Shown here: positions 17,927 through 64,000 of the stretch, in pieces
How positions within the stretch are numbered: position 1 is the stretch's first letter
How the letters are laid out: each line of letters opens with the position of its first letter
Assembly: GCA_036172245.1 (NCBI GenBank)
Contig: JAYWIR010000006.1
Coordinates: 5,580,001 to 5,644,000 of the forward strand
Reading direction: 5' to 3'
DNA: 64,000 nt
DNA from: Raillietiella orientalis
Taxonomy: Eukaryota
Notes under the pieces: model-generated
The model's input: the letters and a program-made list of their open reading frames with translations, nothing else
What the model was told of the DNA's origin: nothing
Databases searched by the model: none
Position numbers and translations under genes: made by a program

Positions 17927-18529
17927 TCAGCGCACCCAGCTGCCGGACGCTGTCTGGCTGACGGGGTTCAGGTGGCCGGCGGTCAGCTCGGGGACGACGC
18001 CAGAAGCTGCTGCGGCGCTTGCAGCGGCAGCGCCGGAGGAGGAGGAGGAGTTCGAGGAGGTGGAGGAGGAGGAGGAGGAGGAGGAGGCGAACAGGTCCAG
18101 CGTGTCAAAGTTGCCCTCCATGATCAGCTCGTGCCGGATGACCTCGTCCACGTTGCAGTCCAGTCCGGCCCCAAAGTTCTCCAGCGCGAAATCAATGTCC
18201 GTGGGGATGGCTCCCGGGGCGCAAAGCTGCCCCGGGTGAGGTCCCTGCATGCCCGGAGGGTAGCCCTGCGCGAGGCTCCGCGGAGTCTCGCCTTCCTTCT
18301 GGGACAGGGCGGCCCGCAGCATCCCGGCGGACTGCGGCTGCTGCTGCGGCTGCGCCGGCGGCGGCGGCTGGTCGTGCGTTGGCGGTGGCGGCGGCGGCTG
18401 GGAGCCATTGCTCATGGCGCAGTTAAAACTGGGGCTGTAGGTGGGGACGGTGAGGTGGGCGAGCAGGCTGGAATCTCTTGACGACGGAGAGAACGCGTTC
18501 TCGTAGGCTGGTCCGACTCTCAGGGCGCC
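17927..18529 (-). CDS. FoxO: FoxO copy A coding exon 3 (200 codons + stop)
   Basis: Branch point CTAAC, pyrimidine tract CTCTCTCTCTTTCCTTGTGCCCAG, and an in-frame read into ORF 17927..18415 containing the transactivation motif. Stop TGA at 17929-17927. Confidence 0.9.
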   Translation of the reverse strand, partial: GALRVGPAYENAFSPSSRDSSLLAHLTVPTYSPSFNCAMSNGSQPPPPPPTHDQPPPPAQPQQQPQSAGMLRAALSQKEGETPRSLAQGYPPGMQGPHPGQLCAPGAIPTDIDFALENFGAGLDCNVDEVIRHELIMEGNFDTLDLFASSSSSSSSTSSNSSSSSGAAAASAAAASGVVPELTAGHLNPVSQTASGSWVR

Positions 18530-39549: not shown

Positions 39550-40400
39550 CAAAAGGTCATCTTCTTGAGATCCTATCGTCTGGAAGTGGGCTCGCCCCAG
39601 GAGCACGATAGGGGGAGCGCAGAAACTGCTCCCCCGGAAATATCCTAGGAAGTGCGCTCTCAGTCTCGGCCCCAGAGCGGGGCGATCGACGACCTCCCAC
39701 CACCATCTGAGCGTCCTTCAGGAAAAGTTCGACTGGGCCGGGATCGGGAAGAGGGAGGGCCATCGGCAGACAGGCGGCGCAAAGAACGCTAGAATGTGGG
39801 AGAAACGGAGAAGATGGAGGCAATGGCCACACAGCAAAGGAAGGAGAGGAGACCTTGCGTTTGGTCTCGTCTTCGAACGAGGGCGCTGCCGCCGGTTTCT
39901 GTGGCTGTGGACGTGGATCGGAGCTTCCTTCGATCCCCTGTCGGGGAGCTTTAGGGAACTGGAGGATTAAGAAGGAGAGACATCTCGCTTCCCGGGACCG
40001 CTGGCGGCGAGGCTGGAGCCGCCGCGGCTCTGGAGCCCTGCGGCGGCGGAGGGCTGCGGCTCTACAGGAAGGTAGTTGGCCAATAGGAGTAGAGATGGCG
40101 CCGCAGGCGCGTTTTTCCTGCCGGTGAGAGAGGACATTAGCACTCGACATCACTGCGGCAGCTGGGATGGGATGGGGAGGGGGAAAGGGCGGAAGCTGGG
40201 AGAAAGTCCCGCTCCCACTTCCCTGTTCCCGGCCTTGGATATTCGGGAGACACCCGGAGAAACAGGAAAGGCCACACGAGGAAAGCACTCGGGCTGCCGG
40301 ACACATGCATGAATTTACGCGAGGGATGAGCCAGGCAGGAGAGGCCTCTCTGTGGTAGACAAACCACCCGCCACTCATCCGTTTCTGAGAAGTAAACGGG
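39550..40400 (-). mobile_element. Decayed Ty3/Gypsy-like pol fragment
   Basis: 'ALPLPDPGPVELFLKDAQMVVGG' resembles the RNase H start consensus (LxxPD...F.LxTDAS..GVG). Boundaries are approximate. Confidence 0.35.
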
Positions 40401-42099
40401 AAGGAGGGGGAAAAGCATTTTGTACGGAAGTGTTGCCCCCCAGTGGGTGGACGGGCAACGGGGGATGTGCACGCGCGTTCCAGACGGAGGGACCCCCGGG
40501 CAGTGCAGAGTCCTGCCCCTCACTGTTCTCCGTCCCTCTTACTGGTGGTCGGCGAGTTGCCGCGAGAACACAACTGGCCGATCCGACGGGAAAGCCCCAG
40601 CGCGTTGATGAACTCCTCCCGTAGAAGGAGTAAAAGAAGAGGAGGACGAAGAGGAGGAGATGAAGGAAAGAGGAGGAGGGATTGGGAAGAACAAGAGTGG
40701 GAAGGGAAGAGGAAGAGGAGGAATGAAAGAGGAAGAGGAGGAAGGGAAGAAGAGGAGGAGGAAGAGGAAGGGAAAAGGAAGGAGGACCTCGGAGCTCAGA
40801 CTCGCGAAAATGCGCTGCTGAAAGTTTGGAGCGCTCTCGATTGGAAACGCCGCGGTTCCGCCAGGGAACTACTCAGGGAAGGACGTTTCTGGGAGCTCCA
40901 TTCGTACCCTCCTGCCTTCAACGCGGCAAGGGTTTGGCCCGGTGGAGGCGTGCGGTGCGGCTCTTCCTGGAGGACCTCCACTTCTGCGGCATGTGCGCGG
41001 CGACTGTTTGGAGCTTCCCCCTTACTTTCGCGGGGCATCCGAGGGCTCCTTTCACACCCGAGTACGTCGGGGCGTTTATTTTTTAAAAAAACAAACAAGC
41101 ATATATAGGGCCATTGCCCCTACAGCGTCCGATACAGACTCGGAACTTGCCGAGTAGGCAGCGCGCAGGCCGGCGAGTTCGACTCGGCAGCGGAGGGGGA
41201 AGGGACAAATAAAAACAAAAAAAGAAAACACTATTTACAAAAGCAGGGAGGGGTTGGGGAAGGGGTCACGTTCCGCTGGGGTCGTCCTCTACATCCTTTC
41301 CAGGATGCCGGCAAGTCCAGTCTGCATACATCCGACTGCCGTCCTCAGGAAGCGCAGGGCGGAGCGGATGATGTCCCTATGGTTAGGTCCTGGGGGGTTC
41401 GCGGGGTATTCGAGGGCTCCTGGAGCGTCAAGAGAGGGTCTGGGGTGGTGAAGGAGACGGGCAAAAGCATCGCGTCCTCTCCCGTTCGCTCACCTGCCCA
41501 GGGACTTTCGCTGGACGTTCGTCCGCAGGGTTTGCTCGCGGACGCCCTTGTCTCGTAGCCTCCGCGAGGTGGCTCTGAAAAGGGGCTTTTGCCAAGTGCG
41601 ATGGCGTCCCCTTTCGGATTACGGACGGCCCTTTCTCTTCCTCCAGCGGTCCAGAGAGGGAGGCTGCGGGCCACCCATATCCTGAGGCGCAGCGAGCAAA
41701 CGGTTGGGGAACTGCCCGGATGCGCGATGGCAAGTAAGAAAACTCCCAAGAAGCACCCTGGTGCCGGGAAGGAAGAAACCTTTCCAGGAGGTGGAGAGAC
41801 ACCTGGAGATGATGGAAATCCTTGGGTCCTTCTTTTTCTTCTGTCTTCGCTGTTTTCCTTCCAGCTTTTTTTTTTAAGAGTTTTCTTTTTTTTGGTTCGC
41901 TAAGTACCTCAGAGCCGGTCGCGTGCCTCGCGGCGCGCGTGGCTCTTTTTAAACATTAACACACTGTTTTGTTTCCACGCCTGTCCGCGGCAACCCGCAG
42001 GGGGGGGCGTGTAATTCTTCAGTGTAATATTCTTCAGGATAGGGGGCACCCCGGGATGGGGTCCGCCCTATTGAATCCAGGAAGGGCTCGGAGTCCGTT

Positions 42100-42400
42100 C
42101 CTCTCACGCTTGGGGAGGGATCCCCCCCGGAAGGGGGGGATCTCACCTCCCACCCTGGTTGTCTCCGAAGGGGAACCCCGAAGGGAACTCTCCTTCCTCA
42201 TTCTCTCCGGAGGGACACCCCCCCCTTTGCGGGGTGTGGTGGTCCTCTCCATTTCAACTTCTCCGAAGGGAACCCGGAAAGGATCCGCTTCTAGGAATTT
42301 CTTCTCCGGAGGGAACCCGCAAGGGAACCGCTCCTTTATTCACTCCTCTGAAGACAACCCCCACAGGGGTGCTTCCGAAACTCAGAAGGGGCGCTGCAGC
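42100..42400. repeat. Degenerate minisatellite-like array (~40-56 nt spacing, core CTCCGRAGGGRAMCC)
   Basis: The core recurs near 42163, 42205, 42261, 42305 and, more diverged, 42346. Confidence 0.7.
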
Positions 42401-45400
42401 TTCCCGCAGGGAATCGCTCTCGCTTAGCTTCTTTCCTTTGTACACACTCTGTGAAGAGGCGACGACTCGGAGGGACCCCCCAACAAAGGGGGGTCAGCTC
42501 CTTTGAACAACTGGAGAGGTGCCCGTGAGGGCTCCTGCTCCATCTTGAAACCGGAGGCGGTCCCCCCGGTGACGGGGGTCCACTCTCCTTTGCACACAGG
42601 AGGGGGAACTCCCCACTCCTTTATTCCTGGGAGGACCCGAAGGTCGACTCCCATTGTTCCGGCCTTCATCGGCAGGCCGCCGGCTTTATCCACCGCCGGG
42701 GCCACGCCCGAATGTCTCGGCCAACCAGCGCCCTTGCAGGAGAAACTCGGAACCCAAACGACGCAATGGCATCAAGTTATCCGCCCAAGTATTCGAACCC
42801 GCGACGCATGGTGCCACGCGCGGAAGCCTTAACCACAAAGCCATGGAGTGATGGCACAGATGGTGCCGGGGAGGAAGAAACCTTCCAGGAGGTGGAAAGA
42901 CGGAGGCAGGACCGCTTTTCCCGATCTGCCGCTGCGCCCCACCGCGGCGGCCACAGCCGTGGACGCTTCCGGATTTCTTCGTGGATCGCTGGCTCCCGGC
43001 CGGGATCGCCCGCAGGGATGCTGCAGACGTCCGTGATCCAGGCGCATCGGCTGAAGGCACCCCTCGGGACGTGATCGATCGCAGAGGCTTGCCGGGGGAG
43101 AGACAAGTGTTCCTCTCGGATCTGTCCCGTGCAGACCATAAAAAACAGCGGTCCGGCTGCTGGCGAGGGGCTGCTTTGGACTCGGCTGCTCCTCGCGCCC
43201 GGCGAATGTGGAAGAGGGCGAGGCGTCGCGGTGGGGTGCGCTCCTACGTGTTTGCAGGAAGGGAGGGGGAGGATGGAGGATGTGCGACAGGGGCCGACCG
43301 CTGCTGCTGTCGGAAGAAAGCGCCCCCTGGCGCTGCCTTTTCGCCCTCGCCGCCGCGCCGAACGCCGCGAGGAGCGGTACTGATGATGGGGAGGATGGGG
43401 AGGGAGTCACGCAGGCACCGCTTGACGGTTTGCCCAATGAACCGCAGCCGAGCGCGAGCCGCTTCCACCGGGTCCACGCAGCGATCCGAAAAGCGCGGAT
43501 GGATGGACGATGGCTCCTTTGTTTGCTGAACTTGCTCCTGAACTAATTCCGTCCTCCTGCCGGTCGCTCGCGGGTTCTTCTTCCCTTTGTTCCGGCGTCA
43601 GCGCTGGGAGGGAAGTTCAACTCGAAACGCCTCTGCCGGAAACAAAGGAAGCTGACCGTCGCGCCGCGCGATCCGATAAGCGGATGCTACAAATTAGGGG
43701 GGGGGGGGAAAAAGGGAATTCAAATTGCGAGGTCATCCCCTACTGACGCTTCCTCTCTTCACTCGCTGCGGACCCACAACTCGTCAGAAAGGGGGACAGG
43801 CAGCCGTCCTGCTTTCGTTCCTCCTCCCTATCGATTAATCCCGCGACTTTGCTGGCCGCGGAGAAGGGCACTCCCAGTAGGAGGTGAGCCAAACAATTAC
43901 GGGTGGAGACGCTCGGCTCTCAGGAACGTGGACCGCCTCCACAAAGGGACAGATTCCGCTCCAGCAGAGCCGAAGTTCCCGGTTCCTCGAAGGAAATCGT
44001 CGCGTGAGAGGGCCGCGAAAATTCCCGCCTGGGCGTAGGCGAAACCGATCGGCGACCGAGCTGCTCCTTCCCCCCCCCCCCCCACGGCCGAGCAACCTCG
44101 CCCGTTTCCGCGCGATTCACGGAAGGGAGGAAACAAGCCTCCCTCCCAGCACCAAGCTGGCTCTCTCTTCGGGTGCTCGTTTCTCGAAGGTTGCCCGGTT
44201 ACGGTTCCCCCCGCAAGCGTGGCGTTGCTTGCGATTCCCTGGGTCACCTGTGCCGTGTGTGTGTGTGTGTGTGTGTGTGTGTTCACGTGCCGGTGCGGAC
44301 CGAGTGAGACGCGGGAATATTAGTGAGCCGTGCGGGCGTGTACGTTTGGAGGGCAGGGGGAGGCTCGAGCGAGGCTCGAGCCACAGGGCTCCAACGCCGC
44401 AAGCTCTCACCAGCCTGGGAGGCCGCTCTTCCACCTCTCCGCCTCCTAAAGGGACGCCGGTTGCTCTTGCCAGCCATCATGGCTGCTTGCTGGGCAGGTA
44501 AGTTCTCCTCGGGGCCCACTCGTTTCCGATCTGGGAGGATTCCGGGCAGAGGGTGCCCGACACCTGCCGACCAACGTTTGCCAGAAAGAAGGACGCGTTC
44601 TCTCGTCCTCTCCTCGCTTACGACTCGTTCTTCGTTGGCGGCGGCTCTCGACCCATCGATCCCTCCAGAGAGGTCAACCCTTCCCGGCACCTCGTTCCGG
44701 ATGACGGCTCGTTCTTTCGCTTCAGAGTTCCTGGCGCTGTTCACGGGAAAGCTCCCCCCACGTGCGCGAAATGCGCCTCCCCTCCCCTCCCCATCCCCTT
44801 CTCCTTCGCAGGCCTCATCCTTAAGGTTCCGGAGCCCCCTCAGCGAGTGCTTCGAGGGTGCTTCCGTCCCGAGATAAGAGGGAAGAGACGCAGTCAAACT
44901 CATGCAGTGTCCCAGAAGGGATACTCACAATCCGGAGCTGTAGCTGACAAGGACGGAATAAAAAAAAGAAAAAGAAAAAGGAGAAAAAGGGCTACGAAGT
45001 GGGGGAAAGGAAAGAGGGGATGTGGGGGAAAAGGAAAACTTTCGCTTTCGTCTTCTGCAAGTTCGGTTGTCGCGTTTCGGGAATCCCCCAGGGAGGGCGT
45101 GGGGCATCGAAAGTGTCGATAACGGAGACAGGGGGGAGAGGGGATCACGCTCCACCGTTGATGGGCGGTGGCGGTGGGAGAGATGGTGGGATAACCCTTC
45201 GTTGCAGACCTGCCCTTGGCTGCTCGCTCTGGCTCGTGGACGGCCAATGTGGATCCGAAAGCCAGGCGAGCGTCGAACAGCTCAGCGCGAAAAGCACGGG
45301 ACCGGGATTAAGATACTAAGGGGGAAGGGGGGGGGGCGGCGAAGGGACTGTCCTCGCGTCCGGAAGCTCAAGTCAGTGAGACAAAAAGCAAGGACGCCAC

Positions 45401-45450
45401 CTGGAGGTCGTGAGCACGGGCGACGAAGAGGCGCGTGTCTGCGTTGGCGT

Positions 45451-45499
45451 CCCTTCCTGTCGGATTTTCCCAGGTGCGGGGAAAATCCGACAGGAAGGG
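45451..45499. repeat. Perfect inverted repeat: 21-bp stem, 7-nt loop
   Basis: CCCTTCCTGTCGGATTTTCCC-AGGTGCG-GGGAAAATCCGACAGGAAGGG; the arms are exact reverse complements. Confidence 0.95.
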
Positions 45500-48400
45500 C
45501 CGGGAGTCCCGCGTTTGGGTGCGGACCGGGTTCACACGTGGCTCGCCTCATTCGGCACTTTCCGTACCCCCCCCCCCCCCCCCCACGGCTTCGCTTGGAC
45601 GGGAAGGGAAGAGTGGAACCACGGCCCCGTGGGGTAGGAAAGGGGGACGGGGAGAGAGGCAGCTACCGGCTTCCTTTTCCCCTCTTGGATGCGCAGGACT
45701 CTTTGTTCGGCGCAGCTGCCTCTCCCATACGGGCTCGTCTAGCCCCCTCCCTTGCTACCCTGTGTCCGCCCTACTGTCATCCCCTTGATTGGGCTACTTT
45801 CTGCCGCTTCTCCACAGTGCGGCGGTCAGGTCGCCGGAAATGCCCCCAACCACCAGGTGCTGGTCCGCTTTCCACAGGTGACGTTACGGGACGGCGCGCC
45901 GGAACGCGGGCCATCGGTTGGGAGCACTCTACCCCTTGGACATCGGTTGCCCTCGTTTCAAAAGGGAGACGGTGGTGTCTCAGGCTCCTAATTCCCGGAG
46001 ATCCCGAAAGGATGTCCTTGGGAGTCCTGCCTCTATTCTGCTCTCCTTCCCATCCGTCCGTGCGAGAGCGCGAGGAACTCCCTTCCGCTTCGCGTCCACA
46101 TGGACTCCCCAGCCGCGCGCTTTCCGAGGAGGCGGAGGCAGTCCGTCCATCCTCCCCTTCGCAATCGGTTCGACCGGCACACGGGAAGGGAACGCCCTTC
46201 ACGGAGTCCTCCAGAAGTGCGAGGTTTCCCCGGGATTCGCCGGTGCCGAACGAGGGGATGATGTGTTCCACTCGTGGCTTCCGAGGTCGGCGACTGCTCC
46301 TGCAGCTGTGCGGCTTGATGCGCAAGACACCGAATGGGGCCCACACCCGCGGTTGCCACGGTAACTCCGCATCTGGCCGTGCGAGCAATCGGGCGGCGCC
46401 CCGTGTCTCACATGCCATCTCTCGGCAGCGTCGGGACGGAAAATTGTTCTCCGATCTGGCTGGGAGATGTGACCATGGTGACGGCGAAGGCGCGACACCT
46501 CCAGACTTCGTCGGGAAGAGCAGCAGAGGTGAGGGGAGACGGCCACAGGGGTCATCCTTGCCCACGAAAAGGGATGTTTCCGGTCTTCCCCCACCACAGT
46601 GGAGGGAGATTGAGAAGGAAGGCCACGACCGGGACACAGCCGGCCGCGAAGATCGCGGGATGCAGCGCTGAGAATGTGTGCTCGTGGGGGAAGAGGCCAT
46701 GGTCAGGAAGCGCCTTGCCTCCCCCCACTAGCAGGACGTTGACCTGCGCCGGAAGCAAGAGTAAAGTCAGGTCAGCGTGAGAGGACTCGCTCCCCTTTCG
46801 CCTGCCGGCCGTGGCTCCTCTCTCCTGTTCCTTTGTCAGCGGGCCAGGTTCGTTTCCCAGTCAAGTGACTCGACCTCCCCTTTGCACGTGAGCGAAGGAG
46901 GTCTCGTGCGCCGGCCTCCGAGCACCCTCTCTCTGTCCCCCGATTCACCCCCCTCCCCCTCTTCTCGTTCTGCACATGCCAGGCCGGGAGCACCGAGTGT
47001 TCCCGAGTCCATCTGAGCGTGCACCCGAGGCGGTGTCCCGCAGAGACTTTTCCACTACCTGACCGCCTTCTCCACGGCAGCTCGACCTGTTCCCGGAGAA
47101 GGCGCTAACGCCCGTCCCTCACCCGGGTGGCGGGACACCGGCGTCAAAATCCCCCCGGAGGCTATCCTCGACGCCTCGTTGGCTGCCAGGGTGCTCATCC
47201 GCTGGTGTGGTGCCTGGGGGATCCTCGGACAACCGACGACCTGCCACCTCCGGAAACATGGATTTCGGGAGGCGGTGTCCCGGGGGATGACAGCCTCGTC
47301 CTGCTGTCATCTGGGAAGAAGAGGATGTCTCCAGGACGGTGCTATCCGTGCGTCACTTCCCTGAAATTTTCGACCGGCTTCTTCCTTCCCGGAGCTTTTT
47401 CCCAAGGCCCCGACAGCACGCACGTCTCCTGCGCATCTTCGCGCATCCGTCGCGCGTGCGCGCGCATGCGTTTTCCCGGCATGGCTCCCCCGGCGCCGCC
47501 GCACCTCCCGGGTGGGAGAGGAGAGCCGTCCTCCGTCTTCGGCACGCCCCCCGCTGGCATCCCTCCATGAGGACGGCTTGCCTCGGCGTGCGATCCCGCG
47601 CACCCCCGAGCGGTATTCGGCGTGCCCCACGGGACCGGGAAGCGAGGAGCTATCACTGCCTGCCGGTGGCGAGCCACGTCAGCAGCTCTTCCCGGAGCGA
47701 TTTTGAGTTCTCTCCGCCGCGATGGCATAGCGAGGCGCCGACGCTCGCACGGCGCTCCCCTGGCGTGTGGGCCCGCGGTGGCGCGGCTGTGGCCTTTGTG
47801 CGCGGAGGAGCCACCAAGTGCCGTGGGTTAGAATCCCTCCAGGGGAGGGGAAGGGGGGGGGGAAGGAAGGGTCGACGCCGAGAAATAGGTTGACACCCAG
47901 TCACGCCGGGGAGTATATGTAAAAAGTATACATACAAGGAAGTGACAGGATGCGTGATCCTGCCACGTTATGTGGATATAGGGAAGGAAGCTGCCGAGAA
48001 CGGATGCTCAGACCAGCGGGGTCGCCTCGACAACACAGGGAAAGGGGAGACAAACAAAACGACAAAAAGAAAGTGGGGGTTCAAAGAGGGATCACTGCGT
48101 GCTGGAGGTGTCCTCTACATCCTTGTAAGGATGCCGGCAAGCTCCTGTTTCAAGGTTCCCAGATGGGCCATCTTGACGCTGAAGAAGACAGCAAAGCAAA
48201 GTAGATGGAGTCCCTGTCGTTCTGGACTCCTCTGACGTTGTTCCATGCAGCCACCATCCCATTGCGTGGTCAGCAAAGTGCTGCTAGGTATGCGGCCGAC
48301 GTGATGCCATCGCGCTGGAAGAGCCGCTTTCGAAGGTTTCTGGGTTGCCCTCAGAGATCCGCAGGGACTCGGCAGAGACGCGTTCCCATAGGGGAAGGGA

Positions 48401-51400
48401 GGCAACGCAATCCATGAGAGAGTGCAGGAGGAACCCTCTCTCGCTGCACCTGCCGCAGTTAAGACTCACCTCCTCCGCCGGGTTCGATTGTGTCGGCGGG
48501 CGTTACACGGGAGGCTCCACTGCAACAGCACCGCCGAGAAATGGGGAGTGCGTCGTGAGTTACCCGCGCGGAGAAAAGGGGGAGGCGAAAGGCCAGTTCG
48601 CTCACCGGCAGCCCCGCACGATTCTCTGTTGCCAGAAGCGAACTAGGCCTTCGCCACTTCTCCGCAGTGCTGCCGGAGCTGGACCCGGGAAGCACCCTCG
48701 ATGCCTCTGCCTCCTCCCGCGGCTCTCCGCTTGCGAAGGTTTCCTAGCGGAGCCCGAGGGCAGTCCTCCCACCACCCAACTTCCCCCCTTCCGAGTCTCC
48801 ACCCCCCATCGCTGACGAGATGGGCGCCGGCATGGCTCGCGCCTTCGTCTTCCGCGCGCCCTCTCGCGACCCTCCACTGGCTCCGAGACGCCCCTAGGGC
48901 GGCTTCTCGCTCCCCGGGGCCTCTCCGGCCGTCCATATGACCTGTGGGTGTCGGGAGGAAGCGGCCACCTTCTCGGACTTCTCGTCCACCTGCGGCGTCC
49001 CCCGTGCCAGCCACGTCGGGCTGCTCCGTTGCGGCCCGAAGGGCCGCCTTTCTCACGTGCGGCATGCAGCAGCCGCCTCAACCACCCGTCCCGAGGTCCT
49101 TCCGGAGTTCCTCCGTTTGCAAGGGACCCCTCCGCGTGGGTGCCTCAGAGAGGATTCCTCCCTGCTTTCCCTGCGTTGGGCGTGACTTCAGGGGAAGCTG
49201 CCGCGAGACGTCCCGAGACGCCACGCCCACGGCGCACCCTCCGCTACCCCGAAGGGGATCATCCGCCCTCGGAGGGGTCTCTGAAGTCTCTGTGGCAGCT
49301 TTGCTCGGCGATCCCCCCCTTCGTCTCGCGTGACTCCCATCCCAGACAACGGGAACCTCTCGTTGCCCGGGATGCAGCCAGCACGTCTGCCGAAGCCTCC
49401 TCCTGCCGGGACCCGCGCGCCTAAAAGCATGGGAGAAGCCTCTCCGCGCTGGCAGATCGGACTTCGTCGTGCCCACCTCGGAGCTCGATCTTCCCCGCCT
49501 TCCCTCCTCCCCCGAGAGTCCTGTCCCTACCGCAGGCGCCGATCATGACCAGGGACTTCTGGGTGCGCCTTTCTTCGTGGACTTCTTCCCAGACTGCCCT
49601 CGGGAGCCCGCCCACACCTTCGGCGCTTTCCCAAAGAGGTCACTCCCAAGAGGACACGCTGCCCCTCAGCGAGTCACATTCCTGGCCCTCGCTACCCTCG
49701 CGGCCAGCCTCTCAAAGGGACCTGGCGGCTCCTTGCTTGCCCTCGAGGGTCGTCCGGATCGAATGTCTCGGGGGAAAACCGGTCAAATCTGAATCTGACC
49801 TGTCTTCCCCTCCCATCCGAGAGCATGTCTCCCAGGGAGGGTAGAGACCTCCAGCGCTCACCCATTTCTCTCTCCTCCCATCTCCTGCCAACAACTTCTC
49901 CCGGCGGCTCCTCGGGGGGCCCCCGAAAGCAGCCCGACTCCGGGCGTTCCCGGAAGCGCAGAGGCCCAATGCCTGGGTCGGCGGGTCGGCTCCAGACCGA
50001 GACTGTTCCCTTCCTGTAAAGTGGGCATCCCGGAGGCGCGTTGCCTCCAGCGCCCTCGGATGTTCCCTGAGCGACGATCGGAAGCTCGAGGAAGTTGCGA
50101 ATGGGCGTGCCGGTGTTCTTCCCGAAGCGCAGGGGACGAGAAGCGTGGTGTGCCTGGCGCTCAAGTGCGGGGAGGCCTCTGGGAGTCCGTGAGAACTCCT
50201 CCTGACCCCGGAAGGTCACCCTCGCGACCCTGCTCCTTTTCCTTCCCTTCCCTCCTGTGCGAGGGAACAGCGCTGCCCCGCGGACAGGAACGCTGCCTCG
50301 GCGCCCCGCGGGTCCGGTGAGTCATGCGAGAGCGGCGGTTGTCCCTGGATACGGAGAGAGTCGCTGACAGGAGGGAGTGATCCGAGGGAGAAATGGGGCG
50401 GGAGATGAAAGAGGGACGCTGCCCTCAAGGGAGTATCTTCTCCCGGTCTCGGGAGGCAGCACAGAGCTTCCCGCCGCCGTCCCTCTCTCCTTCACGACGT
50501 CGTAATCTCCACGGAAACGCCTTGCTCTGGAGGGGGAAGTCCAGCTTATCTGCCGGACCACCCCTGAATCCCTCGCTGCCACCCTCCCGTCCTTAGAGCC
50601 CTCAAGGATTCGGGTGAAGTCCCGTGGGTCTTCCTCGGCGGCGAATGCGCCCGTTTCCACGGCAATTCGCGGGGAGGCTGCTGCTGTCCTCCGGAAGAGG
50701 AGGAAGCAGGATTTCGGGACCGCCTGGGGAGGGGCTCCGTCTCTTCCCTAGAGGTCGAGCAGATCCCTGGTGCAGGATAAATCGTAAAAACCTTTGTAGA
50801 CTGGCTCCGCGTTTCCGAGGCAACTGCGGTCCACGAGGACAGATTTCTGCGATGGCTCTCCTTGACGCCGGGGAGCTGGGGGAAGACGGTCGCTGGAGGC
50901 TTCCTCGTTCCTCCCTGATCCCGTCACCCTCCTGCCCGCAGTCCTGGCTCTTTGAGGGGCAAGAGGAAGGTCCTCCGTCTTCCAGCGCGCTGTCTTTCCA
51001 AACGCCCGGAAGGCCCAGCCCGCTTCGTGGCGTCCCTTGCGCCCGTCCCCCCTGGAGCCCGCAGTCTGTCCCCTCCGAACCTGTAGAGGGCGTCCTGAGA
51101 GGAGAGAACGCGGCACTGCCGCTCGCGAGGCGGCCGTGACCGCTGCGGCCCCGGGACGAAATCCGAAATGGAGGGGTGGGCAGCGATCGGAAGGCTTCGC
51201 TCTTGCAGTGGGCGCGTCGTGGCCTTCAGGGCACCTATCCAAGGCAGCGGTTACTCCGCCCTCCGCTCGAAACAGGCGAAGAACCTCCTCTTCCGATTCT
51301 CTTGCTGGCACCCTTCGTCGGGAGATTGGTGTGCCAGCGCCTCGCCAGGAATAAAATGGAAGATGGCTTTCTGTCTGACCTTGAGTTCATTGGCTCAAAT

Positions 51401-54400
51401 TGCAAAAGAAATTAAGCACATGGACTTCGTCAAACGTAGAACAATTGTCCATAAATTTCAATGCCAACAAGTCTCTTGAGGAAGTACCGATTATTCCATT
51501 CTGTCCGTGACCTTCTGATGTAGGAAGCTGCGGAAAAAAAAAAAAAGATACGATAAAAATTTTGGACATAGCAATCTACTTTTATGAAGTGTGTTTCAAG
51601 GAGGGGGAGGGCCAGGAGAGGGGTAGTGGAATTTATTTCCAGCGTCATAATAGTAAAGCGGAAAGAAAGGTGAAATTTGAAAAAGAAAAATAAAATAGTT
51701 TAGAACTTAAGCAATTTCAGTTCCTCTTTGAGGTTGCTGCATACTTTTTGAAATATCGTTTGCACGTATGCCTGAAGCCGAAGTACATGAAAACCACAAA
51801 TTGCATTAGGTTGAGAACGAAATGCTACTACGTAGGAGGCATAATTGCATAACCGCAAAGTTAAATATGCGCCGTACTGAAATTCAAAAAAAAAAAAAGC
51901 ATCTGGCAACACCGAATGCATTGTTGCTAGCTAAAACATTGTGAGATATCCGTACGCGCCATGTTGATTTGTGATCGAGCTGCTCCAATTCAGCGTGCCT
52001 ACAGTGCTGAAAAATTTTCATTCCCCATTAACTACGGAAGCGGAGGACCAAGGAAACTTATTTAGTCAATCCATCAAACTTATTTAGTTTTGATTAGAAA
52101 GGTAAGGAAGCCCAAATCTCATATCGAAGCACGCTGTGCATGCACAAAGAGTCGTCATACGAAAGGCCCCAAAAACGAAATCATTTCATCCGTAGCTGCA
52201 CGTACACACACACACACACACACATAGGTACACATGCTCATGAAATTGAATTTTTCGAGACTGAAGGAATTCATGCTGCCATCTTCAATACATTATTGTT
52301 CTATGATCTGAGGATGAAAGAAGCCAATGCATGATTTACAACACCTCATGGCGCCAGAGAAGACGGAACGAGGAAAAAAAAAAAAAGAAAGCTGCCATTA
52401 AATTTCGCCACTGATCATTCAGAAGTCCTCTCCTAAGCAAATTATTCACAGCGCTGTGACGTTAGCAGCTGCCCGTGAAACCGAAGACGATTTTTCTATC
52501 CCGACGATCCATCCCCTGGCGGCGGTTGCTCGAGTCCTCCAGACGATGACTCCATGACTCTCGACGGATGCATTCATTAAATTCTTAATGGTGTGAGGAC
52601 GAAGATTCACGCCGATGCGCCCGAAGTGTGATGTCGAGACGCGCGCACGAAAACACCCCGATATCATCGGTACTGCGAATTTACTGTTAATCAATCATCC
52701 GGATGGTGTCTCGGGACTTTATTTTCGAAAAGTCGCCTCCGAGAAAGGGGACGCCGAACGGGAACGCTCGCGCTTCGGAATAGTTTCTTTCGTTCAATTA
52801 ATTCTCCTAGGTACGTGGCCCTAATAAGGACGCTCGCCAGGGAAGTGGCGCGGATGACGCTCGACGCCCGTGCCTTGCCGTCGCCCACACTTCGCTAATT
52901 CGTGCGAGCGGCGTCGGACGCGTGACGAGCGAAACTTCTGCCGCCTCCGAATTCCGATGGCCGGCCGTGGCCAAACCCAATTGCCTCCCGGGGATTCCCC
53001 CGTGGGAACTCGCATTTCGTGTCCGAGAGCGCCCGGGATGCTCTCGCGTTTTGGTACCGCGCGGCACACCACGCCAAGAGCTTCGGGTCGTTTGTTACTG
53101 CCAGAAGAGGAAACCGTTCCGGTGATCGAGGGTTGGCAATGGCCGGCGTGCCTTTCGCGGGAAACGGACGTTCCGACAGTCGGGAAGGCCTGGGCAGGGA
53201 TGCTGGCGAATAAAGCAGTTTCTGGAAGTTCAAGTCGAAATCGATCCCGGGCTCGTATTGGCGCCCATTCGAGATGCGCCATGTTTTCAAGAATGATAGT
53301 CCTCTACCACTGATCCGATTGCGGATTGCTTGCCTTACACGCCGCATCGATCTGATTGGACAACCGAGCGGTTGATTTCCCTAAAATCCGAATTTCTCGA
53401 GCTCTTCCTGTCGAAGGTCTGGCTGAGTCGGTTCTTAAGGGAAACCCGATTTCCGATCCCTTCCGCATCTTCGAAGAGAGCAGGCAGTTCTGGATCTGAA
53501 AGCATCGTATCTTCTGCGTATTGGGGAGCACGCCTCAGATCTTCTGTCTCATCTTCAGCCCGAGCCACAGGCGGAGGAGGCTCTGTTTCCGAAGACGAGG
53601 CTCATTTCTAGGTGTAGCACTCACAAGAAACTGGCTGTTGCCGCCTGCATAGGGTCCTGGAGACCGACTAAAATTACAGCAGACTCCTAACAGTCTTCGC
53701 GCTTGACTATCGCATGGGTTCTTTCTCTTTTTCGTCTGCAAAATCATTTCTCCCCGTGCAGCTGTCAAAAACAAAACAAATCAAAAAAAAAGGGTGCGCT
53801 TGTGACTCTACCCGGTAAATCAACAAAATTTCGGACGAAGTGGGTTTCAAGTAGGCAAGTAGGAACCTGAAGCTATAAGATTCTGCTTTGTGGCTCGTGA
53901 GACTTTAACGTATCCTCTTAGAAAGAAGAAAACATGCATAGGAGGAGAGCTTTCCCACTTCCTAAACCTAGAAAGTAAAAATGAAATATACACGAGGATT
54001 TTATTTATTTATTTTTTGCAACCGCCACTCAAAGAGGCGACGTCTGTCCTGCTGAAAACAGACTCCAAACCGTACACAAGTGACCACTCTCACTAGTACG
54101 TGATGCACGAGCGCCGCAAATTAGGGGAGACAACGAACAGGAAGACACATTCCTCGGGAGCCTGCGGCTGCTGCTTCTCTTCCCCTCCGATCTCTCTTCG
54201 TTCCTTTGTGGCCACCGTTCCTCGTGCTCAGCTGTTGACTCGCATGGGGAACGGATTTGTGGATCGGCGGGTGCAAGAAGGAGTCGAGCGCACAGGGCCG
54301 CGCGCGGGCAGCAGTCGGATTTTTAACCCGACGTGGTGAGTCGGCACCCTATGCAAGCTCACCCCAAAATGGGACGGCAAATGGAAACCTGGTGGCGTCC

Positions 54401-54566
54401 CGGAAGCCACCGCAGGACCCTACCGCGGCGTTTCCCAAACCGGGACTTTCCCGCGGAACGCCAGTGTTCCGCGGAAAGCCGACCAGTGTTACGTGGGAGA
54501 ATGTGAAAACTTTACATAATTAAAAGAATTTGAGAATCAGTGTTTGCTTTGTTTCCTTAACTCTCA

Positions 54567-55203
54567 TGTTTACTTGCGTGATTTATTTGTTCTTAATATC
54601 TACCTACCCTACAAAATAATCAAGATACTCCTTTCAAAATGTCAGGATTTGTGAAGTGTTCCGCCATAGGAAAAGTTTCGGAAAGGCTGCCCTAAGGAAT
54701 GCTTAGAATTTTCCGCTTAGTTGACTGTGAGGAACTTAAATTAGTAGTAAACAGCGTACACAGCCATTTGTTTGTAAACAGCTTACTGTTTGCTCAAGAG
54801 GAGGAGCAAGCTGTTAGATTTGCTACCCGGAAAGCGCATTAATGCAAAGTTGCCAGCTCGTGGCCATTGGTGGCTGTCGCACCATTTTGCTCCAACCTGC
54901 AAAACCTCCAAGACCGAGTTCTGTTGGCGGCCGTGAGAGCCACTTGCCGAAGGAGTCCGAACCGGACGTCCACATCTGAGGGCTCCATTTCGGGGACCTT
55001 GGTAGAAGCGAACTGGACCAAATGCACACAGACTGTGCGACTCTCCGATTTCAGCAAATTTTCGATCATGACAAAGTATGCGATGGAAGAAAGAAGGGGA
55101 GGAGGAAAGGAAAGGAAAGGAAAGGAAAAAAAAAGAAAAAAAAACGCTGTCTTTCTGGTGGAGAGAACCTTTTCCAGACTCTAAAACCGAACCGTCTGTT
55201 TAC
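54567..55203. promoter_or_regulatory. Cluster of FoxO/forkhead core motifs (GTAAACA / TGTTTAC)
   Basis: Exact cores at 54567-54573, 54747-54753, 54774-54780 and 55197-55203, plus near matches (TGTTTGC, TGTTTGT). Function is not shown. Confidence 0.4.
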
Positions 55204-55820
55204 CTACCGGCATCGAAACGCGTGTTTTCTAGATGCCAGTGTTCATCTCTAAGCGTGTACCGCGAGCACAGGCAAATTTATCTGCTACGGAACTTTAAGA
55301 ATAAAGAAATAATTAAAATGAACGGTGAATCGGAATAAAGCTCCGTTGTGAAAATATAAAGCATGAATAAGGAGGCTATCACGATGATAGACGTTCGGTT
55401 CCCAAATATGCAGTTCATTGCAAGAGTTTATGAGGCTGTAAAGCAATCAAATGCTTCACATAATGGAAGCTTTTCTTTCACATGAATGCGTGATATATGC
55501 TTTTATTTTTACCACAAGCAAAGTTTAATTCCTGCTCCTCAAATACGAACACGGGATGATATGATTTAAAGATCGTTCGAGTGGAGCACGGAGAGGAAAC
55601 TGGTCTACGCGGTGGATCAACAGTGCCAGAGAGACAATCAAACAGCGAGTGGACAGTGGTGAATCAGAATGGGGCGAGCCCTGGACTCCGGTGCTGCGGC
55701 CACGTCGGCGGTGTTCCTCCACGTTTCTTAAAGCCCAGACAAACATCGGCGATGCGCCCCAGGATGTACTTGTTGAGGGCGATGATGAATCAGCACCGCG
55801 CTGATTAATACAAAAATGCG

Positions 55821-55851
<31 letters not shown>

Positions 55852-58800
55852 TGTGTGTGCGTATGTGTGCGTGTGTGAACACATGCACATTCATGAAGTT
55901 GTATGAGCTCCCTTCTCCGAAAGCGCTCTTCCCTCTGATTCTCTCCGAAGTAAGAGTTGAGTGGCTGCGAGTGACGTCCCACTTTCTCAGTTATCAACAG
56001 GGCACGAGGCAAAACTCGTGTTGGTTTAGACAGAACTGGGATGCAACACGGAAGTACAAACGATTCACACTACACATATCTTCACTTTATGTAATTGGGG
56101 TCCCCTGTTATACGCGAGCACACATGCAAGGCTGTGTCGGCTAATGAACTCGTTAAGTTTAAACATCTGCCCAACTTTCGCCTCTCGGCCTGGCAGAGTC
56201 AGTTCCACGGCAACCCATGCCACGGAAATGCTGATTGAAATTTTACGCGAAGCTGGGATTGCGAATCGAGTCTTCTTCTAGCTGAGGTCCACGGATGATT
56301 CGACGAGCGCCTTTTCCTTCATGGCGGGGGAGGGGAGAGGGAGAGAGAGAGAGAGAGAGAAAAAAAAATTATCCCCCTTAATTCGTAGGCGCAAGAAGGA
56401 GGAAAGGCCCGTTGGGAGAACGCGCGAGCCCCCTGTAACGAGTATCTACGCGCCCCCGCCCACGCGGCATGGCCTGTCTATGCTGCAGTGTAAATAGCCC
56501 TCGATCTAGCAGGCGGCTGACTCACTTCAGGAATCGCGGAGATTTTCGTGGCGCTTATCTGCTCACCAGACTCCCTCACGATGTACTCCGGATAAAGCCA
56601 AGCCGCGTTTACCATCGCCATCGCATAGTCCAGTGCTCCGATCCTGGGTTTCCTTCTTTCATAGCTGTTGCATCATTAAATACCGATTCTGCGTCCTGAA
56701 AATGGCGATCTGATTGCAGCCTTTCGAAGGGGCCTCTTAGGCATCAACCATTCCATGAAATGTACCTTGGATGTGTCCTAGGATCAGAGACCCCGGCTTT
56801 CGGCATTCCCGCGGAAAGCACAGTAAAAATGTTGGCATGATTGGTGTTTGTTCCGTGTGCCAGCCCATTCGCAGAGAAGCCGTTCTTTCAAGAGATGAGT
56901 CCCTTTCTATCGAAATGCACTTGTACGTATCCTGATTATGGACATGGGCGAATTTATCACGATTCTCGGAGCGATCCCCATTTTCGGAAACGCGACCGTG
57001 CAGTCAAGTCGTCCGAGCTACACGTGGCCCAATTCAGGACTTTCGGACCGAGGAAGCCGAAATGCCAAGAGTCGTCGAAATGTGGTCTCGGCGAGGCAGC
57101 TGGACCGCACGAAAATACGCGCCGCCGCTGCACTCTCCAGGATTGGCTTCACTCCATTCTGAGTGCCTCGGTCTCGGTGAAAATCGATTTCGCAAGACCG
57201 AACTGCCCACGTCTTGTGGCTCGCAACAGATATGGCTTGTGGCAACGAAAGGGGTGGCAGAATTACCTGGGTTCTGCTTCACCTTTCGCACGTGTAAATA
57301 TTTACAGGTCAGCATGTCCGAGAACGCACACACGTAAGATGATGATGCTTCTCTTTCGAAGCCTGCCGCTGGCTGTAAGGGACATCTTCGGCAACTCCTG
57401 GGGTCCGCAGGCATCAATGCTTTCCTCAGTGACTGGCCTTTTGCAAATCCCTTTTCACGTTTCCCGCATTCCAGAGTACTTTGGGTTTAAGGGTCTTCCA
57501 CCCTCTTTTCCGGTTTTCCAAAAACGTGTGCTGTGAAGATCGAAGGATTTTGCTCAAGAGACAAAATCAAAGGAGATGAACGCGAAATTTTCATCTGTGC
57601 GTGGATCGTGGCGTGTTGTTCTTGGGACGGCCTTCTTCCGTAGGTCAGCCTCATTCCATTGCAGAGGATCAGATTCATTGCGTGGGTTAGTGTGAGCGAC
57701 GAAGAATGTTGGGAATTCGGAAAGGTGAGGAAGGAGATGAGACGTTGCCTGGGAGATAACCGCGAGATCGGTCCAGCGAGTAGGAGAAGAATGAATCGTG
57801 CAGCAATGAAGCAGAGCAGCACGTCGCGAAGCTGGCGGGGAACCAGTGCCGGCTGCCTCCTCGCTTTTCGGACGGTAAGCTTTTCAAATCCTTCGCAGGA
57901 ATTACGGGAGAGTTCAGCTGTAGCATGAGAACACCTAGGCGCAGGAGATGGGAGCTGACGCCTTTGCCTTCGTCTTTTATTTCTTGCTGAGCTGCTCGCA
58001 GCTGCTCCGTTTCAAGCTTTTCACGTTTGCTGAAAGTCTCCGATTAGCTCCACATCGCCTTCTCCTCCCTCCCTTTCCCTTGGAACAAGGGAGCATTTTG
58101 TTAAATGAACTCAGCAGCTCCGTTTGCGTGCTCGCTGCGGATTTCTGGAATTTTTCCCCCATCCCGTCTTGCCACCTTCATCCTCAAACTCCCACTCAGA
58201 ATTTCCTTAGTTCGAGAGACTCCCTCCCATTTCCTCGGCCCTGCCTCTGCTCACCCTCCCCGAGTCGGGCCTCGAAGCATGCCCCAGGCCTCGCAACTAC
58301 GCTTTTCGAGTATTTGGTTGCGATTGTGGATCGGTTGTGAGTCTGCCTGCTCTGATTTGGATTCATTTATAGCTGTCTCCTCTCAATCTTTCTTCCTCTC
58401 TCCTTTTCCTTCTTCCTCCTCCTCCCTGTAACGGAGGAAGATTTCCTTCAAGTGTGCCCTGCGAAGCCAACTTCGAACCGTGACACGGACTTTGACTCTC
58501 GAGCGCGGGCACAATTCCCCAGTGTTGGTCCTTAGCGTTCCTTGCATTTTCTTTGTTCCCTCGGCAGGAACAACATTCTTTTCAGATCAAACCGAGCAGC
58601 AGCAAAGCTGGGAATCTGCTGGAAATTCGGGAGGAACGAGGAAGCCGGGTGTGGGGGGCAGCGAATGAGGGAGTCCCGGAAGGCTATGCGGCACCTCTGC
58701 AAGCGGACCAGAGGAATCCTCATTCGATCGCCAGCGATGAACAAATGCCATCATCGTCTTCTGCGGCAGCACGCTGCCAGTGCCAAGATCACGAAGGTGA

Positions 58801-61800
58801 TCTTGCGGGGAAATTCTCCGCCGGACGCATCGTCGAGCGACGAGCCCCCCCGAAGAACTCGTGATCCCTTTTCTGCGTGCAGACACTTCGGCGTTTCCGT
58901 TGCGTTGCAAACGGGGCGTGCTGCTGTTTCTTCGTTGGGGTTTCCAGTGCAATCACAGCGTTGGCACCTCGTTTCCGGGAGAGTTGCGTCCCCAGACTGT
59001 TTGTGGTGCGGGACGATGGAACCATTCCCGCGCCTGCCGTTGGACCAGCAGGGTTGCCTTCCGAGAAGACTGAGACGGAGGCTGCCATCGAGGCTCTTGC
59101 GCTCTGAGGACAGAGCCAAGGAGAGCTGCTGAGGAGATGCTTCGCGCGAGGCGGAGTCTCGTCACGAGCCGTGTCGTGATCGGCAAGAGATGCTGCATTC
59201 GCACCACAGTCGCACATCTCGCCATGTGCTGAGAATCTCGGGCTCAGCAAAGGGAGGCTGCCCACATGGCAGCGGCCTACACGAGGACGGCGGAGAGGTG
59301 GAAGAAGTCTCCGGGGAGATCGCCACCACTCCGCGTTGGTTGTGGGAAAGATGTGGTAGCATCAAAGAGTCCTGCCCCTTTTTTTCGAGATTGTTTGCTG
59401 TCCTCTCCTTCCCCACTCCGAAATTTTTGGCCTGCTTGTCGGCGAACCCTCCCCCGAACTTTCCTTCCGTTGTTTTCGGGAACTGCGTTTGCTTATTTAT
59501 TTATTTTTTAAAGTGAATGCCCCTGCTTGACCGGGTGAAAACAGGAGCGATGAATGGAAGCGGCAAACTCTCAGTCGCCGGGTTCCCTTCGCTTCGGAAG
59601 ACACCGTCTCCGTCACCCAGAGCGCGCATGGAGACCTCGGTTGAACTTGGCAACGGAGTTGTCATCGCCACCCGAAGTGCTTCAGAAGGCTAGCAGCCAG
59701 CAGTAGCCACGGTGCACACGGCGATCATGGAATAAGGCAAGAGGATGAATCGTCCACACACGGTGACTTGCCGGCTGTTGTCCATCAGGTCGCGTGGGAT
59801 CGCACGGGCCTAGACTTTGGACGATTCTGCCGTGTTGGCGTTTCGGCTCCGCGGAGCGCCAACCGGCGTGCCGCTCCAAGTCCGAGTCGACGGCGCAACG
59901 ACAGCTTGCGGGGGAGCTCCCACCCGGCCGTTCCTCGAGAGGACGTCTTCTGCTTCTTCTTCCCGTTCGAAGGGAGACTCTCTCTCCGGGACGTGCCACT
60001 CAACTTTTGAAAGGATGGCGACCGAGGTGCTCCCGCTGGACACCCGCGCGCGGAAGCGGCTGCGCGCCGGAGGGTGGCGGGCGCAGTGGTGACCACGCAC
60101 CCTGAGGACTCTTCTTGCCCTTTACAACTGGCGGCGCCGGCGGAAGAGCCCTCTCTCCGCCTGGAAGGATCTCGGAAGCGAAGCCCCGGAGACGGGAGCG
60201 GGAAGTCCGCCGAGCTGACATCCGCGACGTGCTCCGAAGATGCAAATTTCTGTGCCTCTTCTTGATGGCTCCTGTCGGATCAGCCTGGACGCGCGTATTT
60301 CCTTCCGAGTCATTACGCGGGACGACAACAAAGGAGTCCTCGATGCATCAAGCCGATAAAGCCCGGACCATGGAACGGGAAGTGGAGGAGAGGGAAAAAA
60401 GAGAAAGAAAAAATCTGCAGAATCTCGTCTTTTCCCGTCTGGAGACTTTATGAGTAGCCTAGGCAACGCCGAAACGATTACCGAGGGGTCCCCAGCTGGA
60501 CGCTCGAATTTACATATAAATTCGCGCGGAATTCCCCCCCCCCTCCTCCTCCTCCTCTTCGCCAAGCGATTTCCTTCGAGGAAACGGATCCCCATGAAAG
60601 CCGTCCCTCATTTTCTCCCGTCTTTCCCTCATAATTTTCCGATAGGGCCACGGGGCGGCCGCGCTCCCGTTCGCGTTTCGGGGAGCGAGTCGGGAAAGTC
60701 GTGTGTCCCTCCGCTAACCCAGTCGATTCCTCCCCCTCCCCTTCACTTCCTCCTCCTCCTCGTTTCCTCTTTCTTCCCTTTTTCTTTCCTTTTTCTTCCC
60801 CCTTTTTTTTCGGGGCAGCGTCATGCGCTCCCGATCGGATGCGGCGGCAGGCGGCGGCGGGCTCTCTCCCCCCTTCGGACATGGCCGGATCATTACCGGT
60901 TCCTGGCGCGTGTGCCGCATCCTCCCGGACCGAAGCCTCGTCCCCATCTCGTCCGGACGATTCTCCTCCTCCCCCTCCCCTCGCTCTCCCCCATCCATCC
61001 ATAAATTTCGGATGTGCCGCAGTAAATCAGCCGTAGTTTCAACAAATGACCGCTTATTGGGGACGAAGGGGACGGGCGGCGAGGGGGAACCTGGGAGCAG
61101 AGAAGCAGCGCGGTCAGCGAATCTCCGCGTCGGATGAGGGAGCGCGCACGAGCCGGGACGGGTGCAGAGCGGAGGGCGGGCGAAGGAGGAACGAGAGGAC
61201 CGCGGCCATTGCAGCGACCTGTCCGACCGAGAGAAGGTTGCGGGATGGACAGGGGTCATCCGGAAGCAGCAGGGGAGAGGGAGGGCATGAGCGCTCCAGA
61301 CTGATAGCGGGTAGGGAAGGGAAGGGGGAGGGAGTCGGCACTCGAGCGTCAGTAGCTGCACCCTTTCCCCCTGACCTCCTCCCCACTGGCTTGTGGCCAG
61401 GCCAATAGGATCCGCGTGTCTGACCTACGGGAGCTCGAGATGCAGCCAACGCTCCCGGAGCACGGCCCCATCCCGCCGCATGCATGAGGCATCGTCAAAC
61501 CGCCGCTGCCGCCGCCGCCTCTGCTGCTGCTGCTGCTGCGCGCGCACGTGTATGCATGCGTGGATCCCTTCGCCGAAGAAGATGTGCCTTCCGTTGCTGC
61601 GATACCGGCGGATACAGAGACTCCGCTTCTCCTCCTCCCTTCCCTGGTAGCGGGAGGGCCCACGGCTCCCCCCTCTGAGAGCTCGCCGACCTCGGGAAGG
61701 GCAACGAGGAAGGCGCCAGCAGGAAGAGGAGCCGCGCGCCAGCCCGGAGAGGTGGGGCCGAGCGAGGCTGCCGATTCCTCCCCCGCCTTCTCCCCGCGAT

Positions 61801-62653
61801 CTCTCTCCTCCCGGGGAGCGGGGAGAGACCGCGGGTTCGCCTTTCCCTTCCCCTCCCCTCGCGCCCTTCCTGTGTCATCCACACTCGGGCTGCACCTGCG
61901 ACCTCACGCAGTTCAACGCGCGCGCACGGGAGGAGGGGACGGCGGGGGGAACAAAGGAAACAGGTGCGTCCCGGGCGTGTGGGGGAAGAGAGCTCCCGGG
62001 GCCCGTTGCGCCCCCCTCCCATCTCCCCTCCTCTGCCCGCCTTCCCGGAGGAAAGAAAGGGCCGTCTCCCGTGGGAAACCCGCCTCAGTCCGACCCCCGC
62101 GGACCTCCTGAGGGAGGGGACGGGGGAGCGAAAGGCTCGCGGCAGGAAAGGAGGAAGTTTCCTCCCGCGTTCCCTGGAGGCTCCCGTGGTTGTCCTCTCT
62201 AGGGGAGCAGACGGTCTTCGACCCCTAAGTGGTAGCGGGGGGAGGGGGTCGTCGAGCCGCGCGCGTGGATGCCGCCCAGGAGGCGGCAGTTTCTCGCAGG
62301 CACCACACTCGCTCGTGAGGTGTCGGTCAGGGGAGCGCTTCCTCCCCCTCCTCCATCCCCTCTCCCCTCTCTTGCTGGAAAGAAGGAAGGAAGGAATAGG
62401 AGGAGGAGGAGGAGGAGGAGAGAGAGAGAGAGGTGGGGGAGAGCCCAGCGAGAGAGAGGCTGCCGCAGCATCGGCGGCTGCGGAGCGCGTTCGGGCCTGC
62501 GCAGTGGCGACTCTCGGCGGCTGCGGCTGCTGGCTGAGCGGTAGCGGCGGCGGCGGCGACGCTCGGCGGCGGCGGCCGGGGCGCCGCGCGCGCGGCTCAC
62601 CACGTGGCTCCAGTCGCGCGGCCGAGCTCGGCGGACGCCAACATGCTCGCGCC

Positions 62654-63169
62654 ATGGTGACGGAGGGAGCGAAGATGCCGCTGCGGTCCGCGTCTCCGGT
62701 GCTGCTCGCGTACCCGTCCCTGCCCCCTGCCTTCCTGAACGGCGGCGGCGACCTGGCGGCAGCCCACGCGTCCAAGAAGGAGGACGACGGCCCTCCCGCC
62801 CACCACCACCACCACCACCACCACCATCACCACCACCACCATCCGGTTCCCTCGTGGGAAAGGGACAACGCTGCGTCGGCGGACAGCGACGCCGGCAAGC
62901 CCCAGCCCGCCCCCGCGCCCGCGGGCACGCTGGCCGCCGGCGCCACCGCCAGGGGCCAGGACGAACCCCCACCCCCCGGATCGAAGGTCCCTAAGCGTCC
63001 CTGCCGCAAGAACGCCTGGGGCAACCTGTCCTACGCCGACCTCATCACACAGGCCATCCAGAGCTCCGCCGAGAAGCGCCTCACCCTCTCCCAGATCTAC
63101 GACTGGATGGTCCACAACATCCCCTACTTCAAGGACAAGGGAGACAGCAACAGCTCCGCCGGGTGGAAG
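62654..63169 (+). CDS. FoxO: FoxO copy B first coding exon (172 codons); remainder, if any, lies beyond the window
   Basis: Strong Kozak context GCC-ATG-G, a 14-His run, then [55 protein letters not shown]. Donor GTAAGA at 63170, at the same phase-0 position as copy A. Confidence 0.92.
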
Positions 63170-64000
63170 GTAAGAGGGCGTGGCGCGAGCAAACGACCCC
63201 CCTGACCCCTTCAGCCTCACTGTCCCCTTTCCCTTCCCTCCCCCTTCCGTCGCATGAGAGTGGACCGAGACTGGGCCGCCCCTGCGGGACCCGGTATCGT
63301 CTTGCCTCCTCCCCCTCTCTGGGATCCAGTTCCCGGGAATGCGTTCTCGGGCCGGGGGCGAGTGCGCGGCAGGCCGCCGCCGCCGCCGCCGCCGCCGCCT
63401 CCGCCGCCTCTTGGCCTTCCCCCCCGCAGCGGGGCGGGCGCGTCCGCCTTCCCTCTGTTGCCTTCGTAACGGGAGCGCCGCCGCCGCCGCCGCCGCCACC
63501 GCCGCTCCGATACATTGTATCATCCGCGGGGGAGGATTTATGCGCCCGGCGGGCCCGCGCGCGCCCCCGGCCGCGCCGCCGTATATCACTCACGGGGCGG
63601 GGAGGGCTAACTGAGGGTTGCCGCGGCGCGGGCGGGCCCTCCGGCGCGCGCGCGCGCGGCTCCCCCACGGTCGGTCGGATCGACGTTCCTCTCCCCTCTT
63701 CCTTCCTTCCTTCCTTCCTTCCCGACAAGCTGACCGACTGCCAGAGGACCGGCCGCCGCTGCTGCTGCTGCAGGTGGTGGCGGGGTCGGGCGCAACCCGG
63801 AGGGCCGGCGAAGGGAAAAAGATCCTCCCTCCGCCATCGCCGCTCGATCACGTGCTGCGCCGCTTCCCCCGTCCTCCCGGAGGCTGCGACCCGGACGTCG
63901 CTTTCGCCCGGAGCCACCGCCGTTGCCCCAGCAGCCGGCTCGTGAGGAAGGCGGTGGCTGCCGGGCGCTCCTGTCCCTTCCCTTTCCCCGAAAGGGCCCG

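Follow-up and report, generated by a model that had tools for sequence, protein, structure and literature searches.

Probable gene conversion of half a forkhead box between two old, linked FoxO paralogues in Raillietiella orientalis

Background

How can two genes that parted long ago share half of a DNA-binding domain, and the first bases of the intron behind it, almost letter for letter? This question is raised by a 64,000-nucleotide stretch of Raillietiella orientalis DNA (the window; G000:C6:5580001-5644000), in which two FoxO genes, here termed A and B, lie head to head in a genome of 210 Mb. The likeness of A and B in the first half of the forkhead box, and in 15 intron bases, is far greater than their age as a pair permits. 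In this report, we compare the two genes base by base, measure their likeness against other regulator genes of the same genome, and weigh several explanations. Judged on the sequence of this one genome, ectopic gene conversion between the linked paralogues is very probably the best reading.

Results and discussion

A canonical FoxO gene and its divergent partner

The models of both genes were made manually and without RNA evidence. Gene A, on the minus strand, has three exons. Exon 1 (31826..32320; 165 codons) carries the first Akt motif and the first half of the forkhead domain, exon 2 (19080..19817) the second half and the second and third Akt motifs, and exon 3 (17927..18529) a stretch resembling the FOXO transactivation domain (FOXO-TAD; E 4.8e-5, 24.1 bits, which is below the Pfam cut-off of 27.4). 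The Akt motifs lie at residues 50, 210 and 278, and among named homologues the best are FoxO proteins of arthropods. With its FoxO forkhead domain, three Akt motifs and transactivation-domain-like end (a sub-cut-off match), the predicted gene A is a canonical FoxO.

Gene B is on the plus strand. Its exon 1 (62654..63169; 172 codons) encodes a poly-His run and the first half of the forkhead domain, with no Akt motif, and is followed by a 10.2-kb intron whose start fills the rest of the window (63170..64000). Exons 2 and 3 (G000:C6:5653346-5654209 and G000:C6:5654303-5654737, both plus strand) sit 9-11 kb past the window end. The forkhead domain is of the FoxO type (best solved match FOXO1, E 6e-30), and the named matches of exon 2 are FoxO or hypothetical proteins. 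In the protein, a basic stretch is retained behind the domain, and there are runs of poly-His, poly-Ala and poly-Gln (62654-63169 and L033:1504-2895). However, the Akt motif RxRxxS/T occurs nowhere in the 604-codon model, exon 3 has no Pfam match to a transactivation domain, and tblastn found no counterpart of gene A exon 3 in the roughly 70 kb downstream of gene B. Among 157 homologues, none lacks both of the first two Akt motifs, even by a lenient test. Gene B is apparently an Akt-uncoupled FoxO, and this is the main point of interest here. The open 604-codon frame, the canonical splice sites and a codon-position GC content resembling that of gene A (GC3 of 0.86-0.90, versus 0.69-0.77 at all positions of intron 1) suggest that it is a working gene.

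Two other arrangements were considered and rejected. Gene B might have had no exon 2 of its own, as in trans-splicing or if it were an alternative first exon of gene A; its exons 2 and 3 are, however, present on the plus strand. Nor is there a sign of a net crossover with exchange of the two 5' ends, as gene A carries the N-terminal as well as the later Akt motifs. We also observed an out-of-frame ATG 11 bases ahead of the gene B start, which opens a five-codon frame overlapping the start codon (62643-62660). Intron 2 of gene B (G000:C6:5654210-5654302) is 93 bases long and could be retained, because it is in frame and free of stops.

The 30.3-kb spacer between the two start codons (32321..62653) holds no alignable paralogous flanks that we could find. 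Outside the two forkhead exons, blastn likewise detected some repeat-like matches in noncoding DNA and nothing that would be a paralogous flank. Because neither the introns nor the flanks of A and B align, the duplication is old, which bears out the description of these genes as otherwise old sequences in a first-pass annotation of the window.

Elsewhere in the window, diverged repeat-like copies with 69-78% identity lie at 42100-42837, at 41145-41315 versus 13555-13364, and at 12705-13005; the first of these matches DNA about 23 kb past the window end. A single open frame on the minus strand (5523-6698), in AT-rich DNA, has a weak match to the SET domain (E 7e-4). Near 8 kb, the GC content of the window climbs from 33-40% to more than 55%.

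A sharply bounded tract of near identity

When the whole genome was searched with the DNA of the tract region, only two places matched: 63011..63184 on the plus strand in gene B and its inverted partner in gene A, 31811..31984 on the minus strand, 31,026 bases away. The gap-free alignment of 63011-63184 with 31984-31811 has 167 of 174 identical bases (96.0%) and comprises the 159 coding bases of the first half of the forkhead domain and intron positions +1 to +15. Six differences are coding (63067, 63068, 63070, 63074, 63076 and 63163) and one is intronic (63172). Among the 53 codons, 49 are identical, two differ silently (TCT/TCC and GGC/GGG) and two change the residue. The longest run of identical codons is 28 (permutation P = 0.0014).

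Both borders are sharp. Identity per 30 bases is 11-13 upstream of the tract, 25-30 within it and 8-11 downstream, and background is reached within a few bases at either end. The base and codon comparisons agree with the first-pass annotation in all of its descriptive points: six differences in 159 coding nucleotides, five of them in one patch (here narrowed to 10 bases, or four codons); two purely synonymous differences; and a likeness limited to the forkhead half-exon and 15 intron bases. It had also pointed to ACA and GGA codons common to the two copies, and these are indeed found in both, at 63047 and 63140. Elsewhere in the genome, eight forkhead boxes together have ACA for one of 21 Thr codons and GGA for two of 34 Gly codons.

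The position of the borders bears on the origin of the tract, which the same annotation had ascribed to conversion or exon shuffling. In one-off shuffling, a piece of gene A would have been pasted into an unrelated first exon to give exon 1 of gene B. The tract does end close to the exon border, and the N-terminus of B has no detectable likeness to that of A (by blastp, only the domain region matches). However, the tract starts at the edge of the domain, within the exon and in frame, after a basic stretch that has diverged and yet is alignable (tblastn extends six residues upstream), and gene B has its own old exon 2 with the intron at the same position and in the same phase. Where a homologous piece is replaced in register, the process is conversion. 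The start in mid-exon and the homologous parts that gene B has on its own account thus speak against shuffling, which we consider extremely unlikely, and the silent sites and the intron match speak for conversion.

Silent sites and codon bias

That extreme GC3 bias inflates synonymous identity had been raised as a caveat, and it is a serious one, because GC3 is 0.93-0.99 in the forkhead boxes of this genome. Long exact runs can also arise without conversion, since the box is strongly conserved and has a GC3 of 0.94-0.96; unlinked Fox genes have exact runs of up to 41 bases in common. Expected numbers of silent differences were taken from a codon model based on codon use in eight other single-exon forkhead boxes of the genome. 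The exon-1 half has two silent differences in 51 same-residue codons, against 14.1 expected (P = 1.2e-6), and the exon-2 half, which is near saturation, has nine in 32, against 10.5 expected (P = 0.32); the two halves differ from each other (Fisher P = 0.0024). Counted over degenerate codons only, two of 47 codons (4%) differ in the tract and nine of 30 (30%) in the exon 2 of the pair. Values of dS (NG86) are 0.10 for the exon-1 half and 0.52 for the exon-2 half, the latter being a floor because of saturation under GC bias.

Comparisons among other genes give the same picture. In 44 other forkhead pairs, 518 of 1839 codons differ silently (28%), and individual pairs span 19-38%. Homeobox pairs differ silently at 47% of codons, and the lowest value is 15% (210 of 435 pairs, namely those with at least 25 comparable codons); these controls were drawn from 50 of 90 matches, the second 20 having been picked for being linked. 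The identity of the tract is well beyond chance and codon bias, and with 2 differences against 14.1 expected, and 44 forkhead and 210 homeobox control pairs, the caveat fails as an explanation.

A history with no exchange, whether through GC3 bias and protein constraint or through a recent duplication followed by fast change elsewhere, would owe what plausibility it has to this extreme GC3. We find it scarcely credible, because pairs with equal bias and the pair's own exon 2 differ so much more than the tract, because unalignable introns and flanks mean an old duplication, and because bias cannot yield the intron match or the A-ending codons common to both copies.

The intron match

Fourteen of the first 15 intron bases are identical between A and B, as the first reading of the DNA had noticed. 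The donor reads GT(A/G)AGAGGGCGTGGC in both genes. This pattern has two matches in the genome, both of them here, and the reversed control has none, so a common splice motif was rejected as the source of the match. At a fixed register between two introns, a 9-base match has an empirical chance of 5e-5. The intron match is best read as the tract extending beyond the end of the exon.

Several similarities occur beyond the tract itself. In-frame read-through peptides of 63185-63202 and 31810-31793 remain alike for six codons past the DNA match (BLOSUM62 score 16, P = 0.004 for a window picked post hoc), and this likeness may be the decayed edge of an older tract. The exon-2 halves open with 22 identical bases that include the acceptor AG (19819-19798 versus the start of exon 2 in L033), and immediately ahead of them A and B have an 8-base word in common at a 6-base offset; this may be another tract, short or old.

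Selection at the nucleotide level since the duplication, for example on an exonic enhancer, a splice element, an RNA structure or a second reading frame, might also preserve such a stretch. The donor and the G-rich stretch behind it do fall within the identity, and the read-through peptides could be taken in the same sense, given the post hoc window noted above. We assign this explanation a very small probability: the RNA has no unusual fold (z = +1.16; 181 of 200 shuffled sequences fold equally well), the donor pattern is uncommon in the genome, and no such read-through occurs among 260 proteins. In addition, other arthropods rarely have the residues common to A and B, and the tract therefore has not been frozen across species.

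A mosaic protein and an island of differences

Conversion between the paralogues would leave a mosaic protein, and A and B are 96% alike in the first half of the domain and 74% alike in the second. In the first half, where they differ at two residues, no homologue out of 111 comes closer to either protein than the other paralogue does; in the second, with 11 residue differences, 110 of the 111 do. These are protein distances to distant arthropods, after 13 of 124 homologues were dropped for gaps or truncation. Among 107 homologues (13 of 120 having been left out for gaps or truncation), the first half is less conserved than the second (89.6% versus 94.8%). The HNI motif is common to A and B and is present in none of 135 other FoxO proteins.

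No orthologue of gene B was found among 7 matches from 958 candidates, among the best 150 of 477 matches, or in an atlas search (best score 0.81). Small shares of the gene A exon-1 region are contained in 22 sequencing runs, the largest share being 0.20 in run X1, about as much as the tract alone would contribute; these shares are not taken as evidence.

Five of the six coding differences form an island within 10 bases (63067..63076, plus strand), flanked by identical runs of 56 and 86 bases. The island holds both residue changes (SAEK in B, SPEY in A). Its clustering has P = 8e-5 by base and P = 0.025 by codon, in one species. The residues are rare: the Tyr of A occurs in none of 107 homologues and the Ala of B in five of 107, and the SAEK of gene B equals that of human FOXO1. 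Selection may perhaps keep the island.

The island also bears on whether the tract is an artefact of assembly or polishing, in which the consensus of one copy was written over the other. We hold such an error to be highly improbable. The copies retain seven differences, including a five-base island between identical runs, and, on a contig of 6.0 Mb, each gene has an open frame and flanks of its own. A similar pattern in a second pair of regulator genes (see below) could share a technical cause, but homogenization is absent from two other linked pairs whose homeodomains are near-identical.

Proposed course of events

We propose that the two FoxO genes owe their head-to-head arrangement to an old duplication, and that A and B then drifted apart everywhere except in the forkhead box, which purifying selection would have kept usable as a repair template. 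One copy would have suffered a break or a mispaired strand, and nonreciprocal gene conversion would have mended it with the other copy, at a distance of 31 kb, as template. This might have been one event with patchy repair or, more likely, several. Loss of homology would explain why the tract goes no further than the domain edge on one side and the first intron bases on the other, and the island would represent old divergence that was left un-overwritten. The exon-2 half may have been spared because it has residue changes of its own and is a separate target beyond an intron of 10-12 kb.

Other regulator pairs in the genome

Longest exact common runs among 72 forkhead and homeobox loci belong to an otd-like pair (115 bases), the FoxO pair (86 bases) and an Iroquois-like pair (45 bases). 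The names used for homeobox loci (otd, Iroquois, Lim and ems) are those that we take to fit their homeodomain sequences. The otd-like genes L068 and L069 (G000:C28:92477-93214 and 108448-109185) are both on the minus strand, 16 kb apart. They have 168 bases with two differences, in one residue-changing spot, and these bases (L068 positions 360-527) run across an intron of 54 bases that is identical in both genes; divergence is seen in the flanks and in the 5' third of the box. This pair shows the same domain-limited pattern too.

The linked Iroquois-like genes L070 and L071 (G000:C12:2501208-2501978 and 2478889-2479662) are 22 kb apart. Beside their 45-base run, they have six silent differences in 49 codons (12%), reflecting either an older conversion or a codon model that overstates the expectation for close paralogues. 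The two linked pairs that are not homogenized have 22 of 43 and 19 of 40 silent differences.

Possible consequences

Tracts of this kind make old duplicates appear young in trees built from the forkhead alone, and lead to cross-reaction of probes or RNAi designed on the domain. Provided that gene B is expressed, the presence of an Akt-free FoxO next to the canonical one offers a testable way to uncouple FoxO targets from nutrition. A bolder hypothesis, which we put forward tentatively and think rather unlikely as a whole, is that gene B encodes an expressed FoxO free of insulin/Akt control, with no Akt motifs, no transactivation domain, and long poly-Ala and poly-Gln runs, that would be nuclear and would compete for or repress FoxO sites. 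Repeated conversion would match half of its DNA-binding domain to that of the canonical gene while selection keeps the two-residue difference, and the same domain-limited conversion would act on other old regulator pairs of the lineage (the otd-like and perhaps the Iroquois-like pair).

Comparison with known systems

In the open-access literature, with most subscription journals outside the scope of the search, we found neither this pair nor any conversion between FoxO paralogues described. The FoxO passages of PMC8918179 and PMC9269926 do not mention such a pair, although the supplements of these papers could list FoxO duplicates. The novelty suggested by the first-pass annotation was nevertheless overrated, as the same anatomy has been published for another gene pair and recurs elsewhere in this genome.

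Three Akt sites are a hallmark of FoxO proteins, and FOXO6 is without one of them (PMC7140813). According to the part of that source dealing with vertebrate FOXO6, this protein has partly lost Akt control and mostly stays in the nucleus. Gene B resembles FOXO6 in being a FoxO paralogue with reduced Akt control; as modelled, however, it is without all three sites and the transactivation domain, whereas FOXO6 is without one site.

The difference island resembles the islands or peak of divergence expected under gene conversion in the Teshima-Innan model, as described in PMC2588116, in that clustered differences including the only residue changes are surrounded by homogenized DNA. However, it is only 10 bases long, with P = 0.025, and the test of that model requires orthologues.

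Linked old paralogues with conversion in the DNA-binding box are also known from the concerted evolution of hexapod engrailed and invected (Peel et al. 2006, as cited in PMC3199776 and PMC10455198). As these citing passages present it, conversion there lies in the homeobox and was demonstrated by trees across many species, whereas the FoxO pair is known from one genome. A close parallel is Dlxa/Dlxb of the annelid Capitella teleta, a homeobox pair whose description in PMC3199776 has the same conversion anatomy. By that description, the Dlx genes are arranged tail to tail and their 3' half is near-identical too, with three differences. In contrast, the FoxO pair involves a forkhead box, is head to head over 31 kb, has a second half near saturation and carries a residue-changing island within the tract. 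The FoxO pair very probably adds a clean case to a process already known, in which conversion between old regulator paralogues stays within their DNA-binding box.
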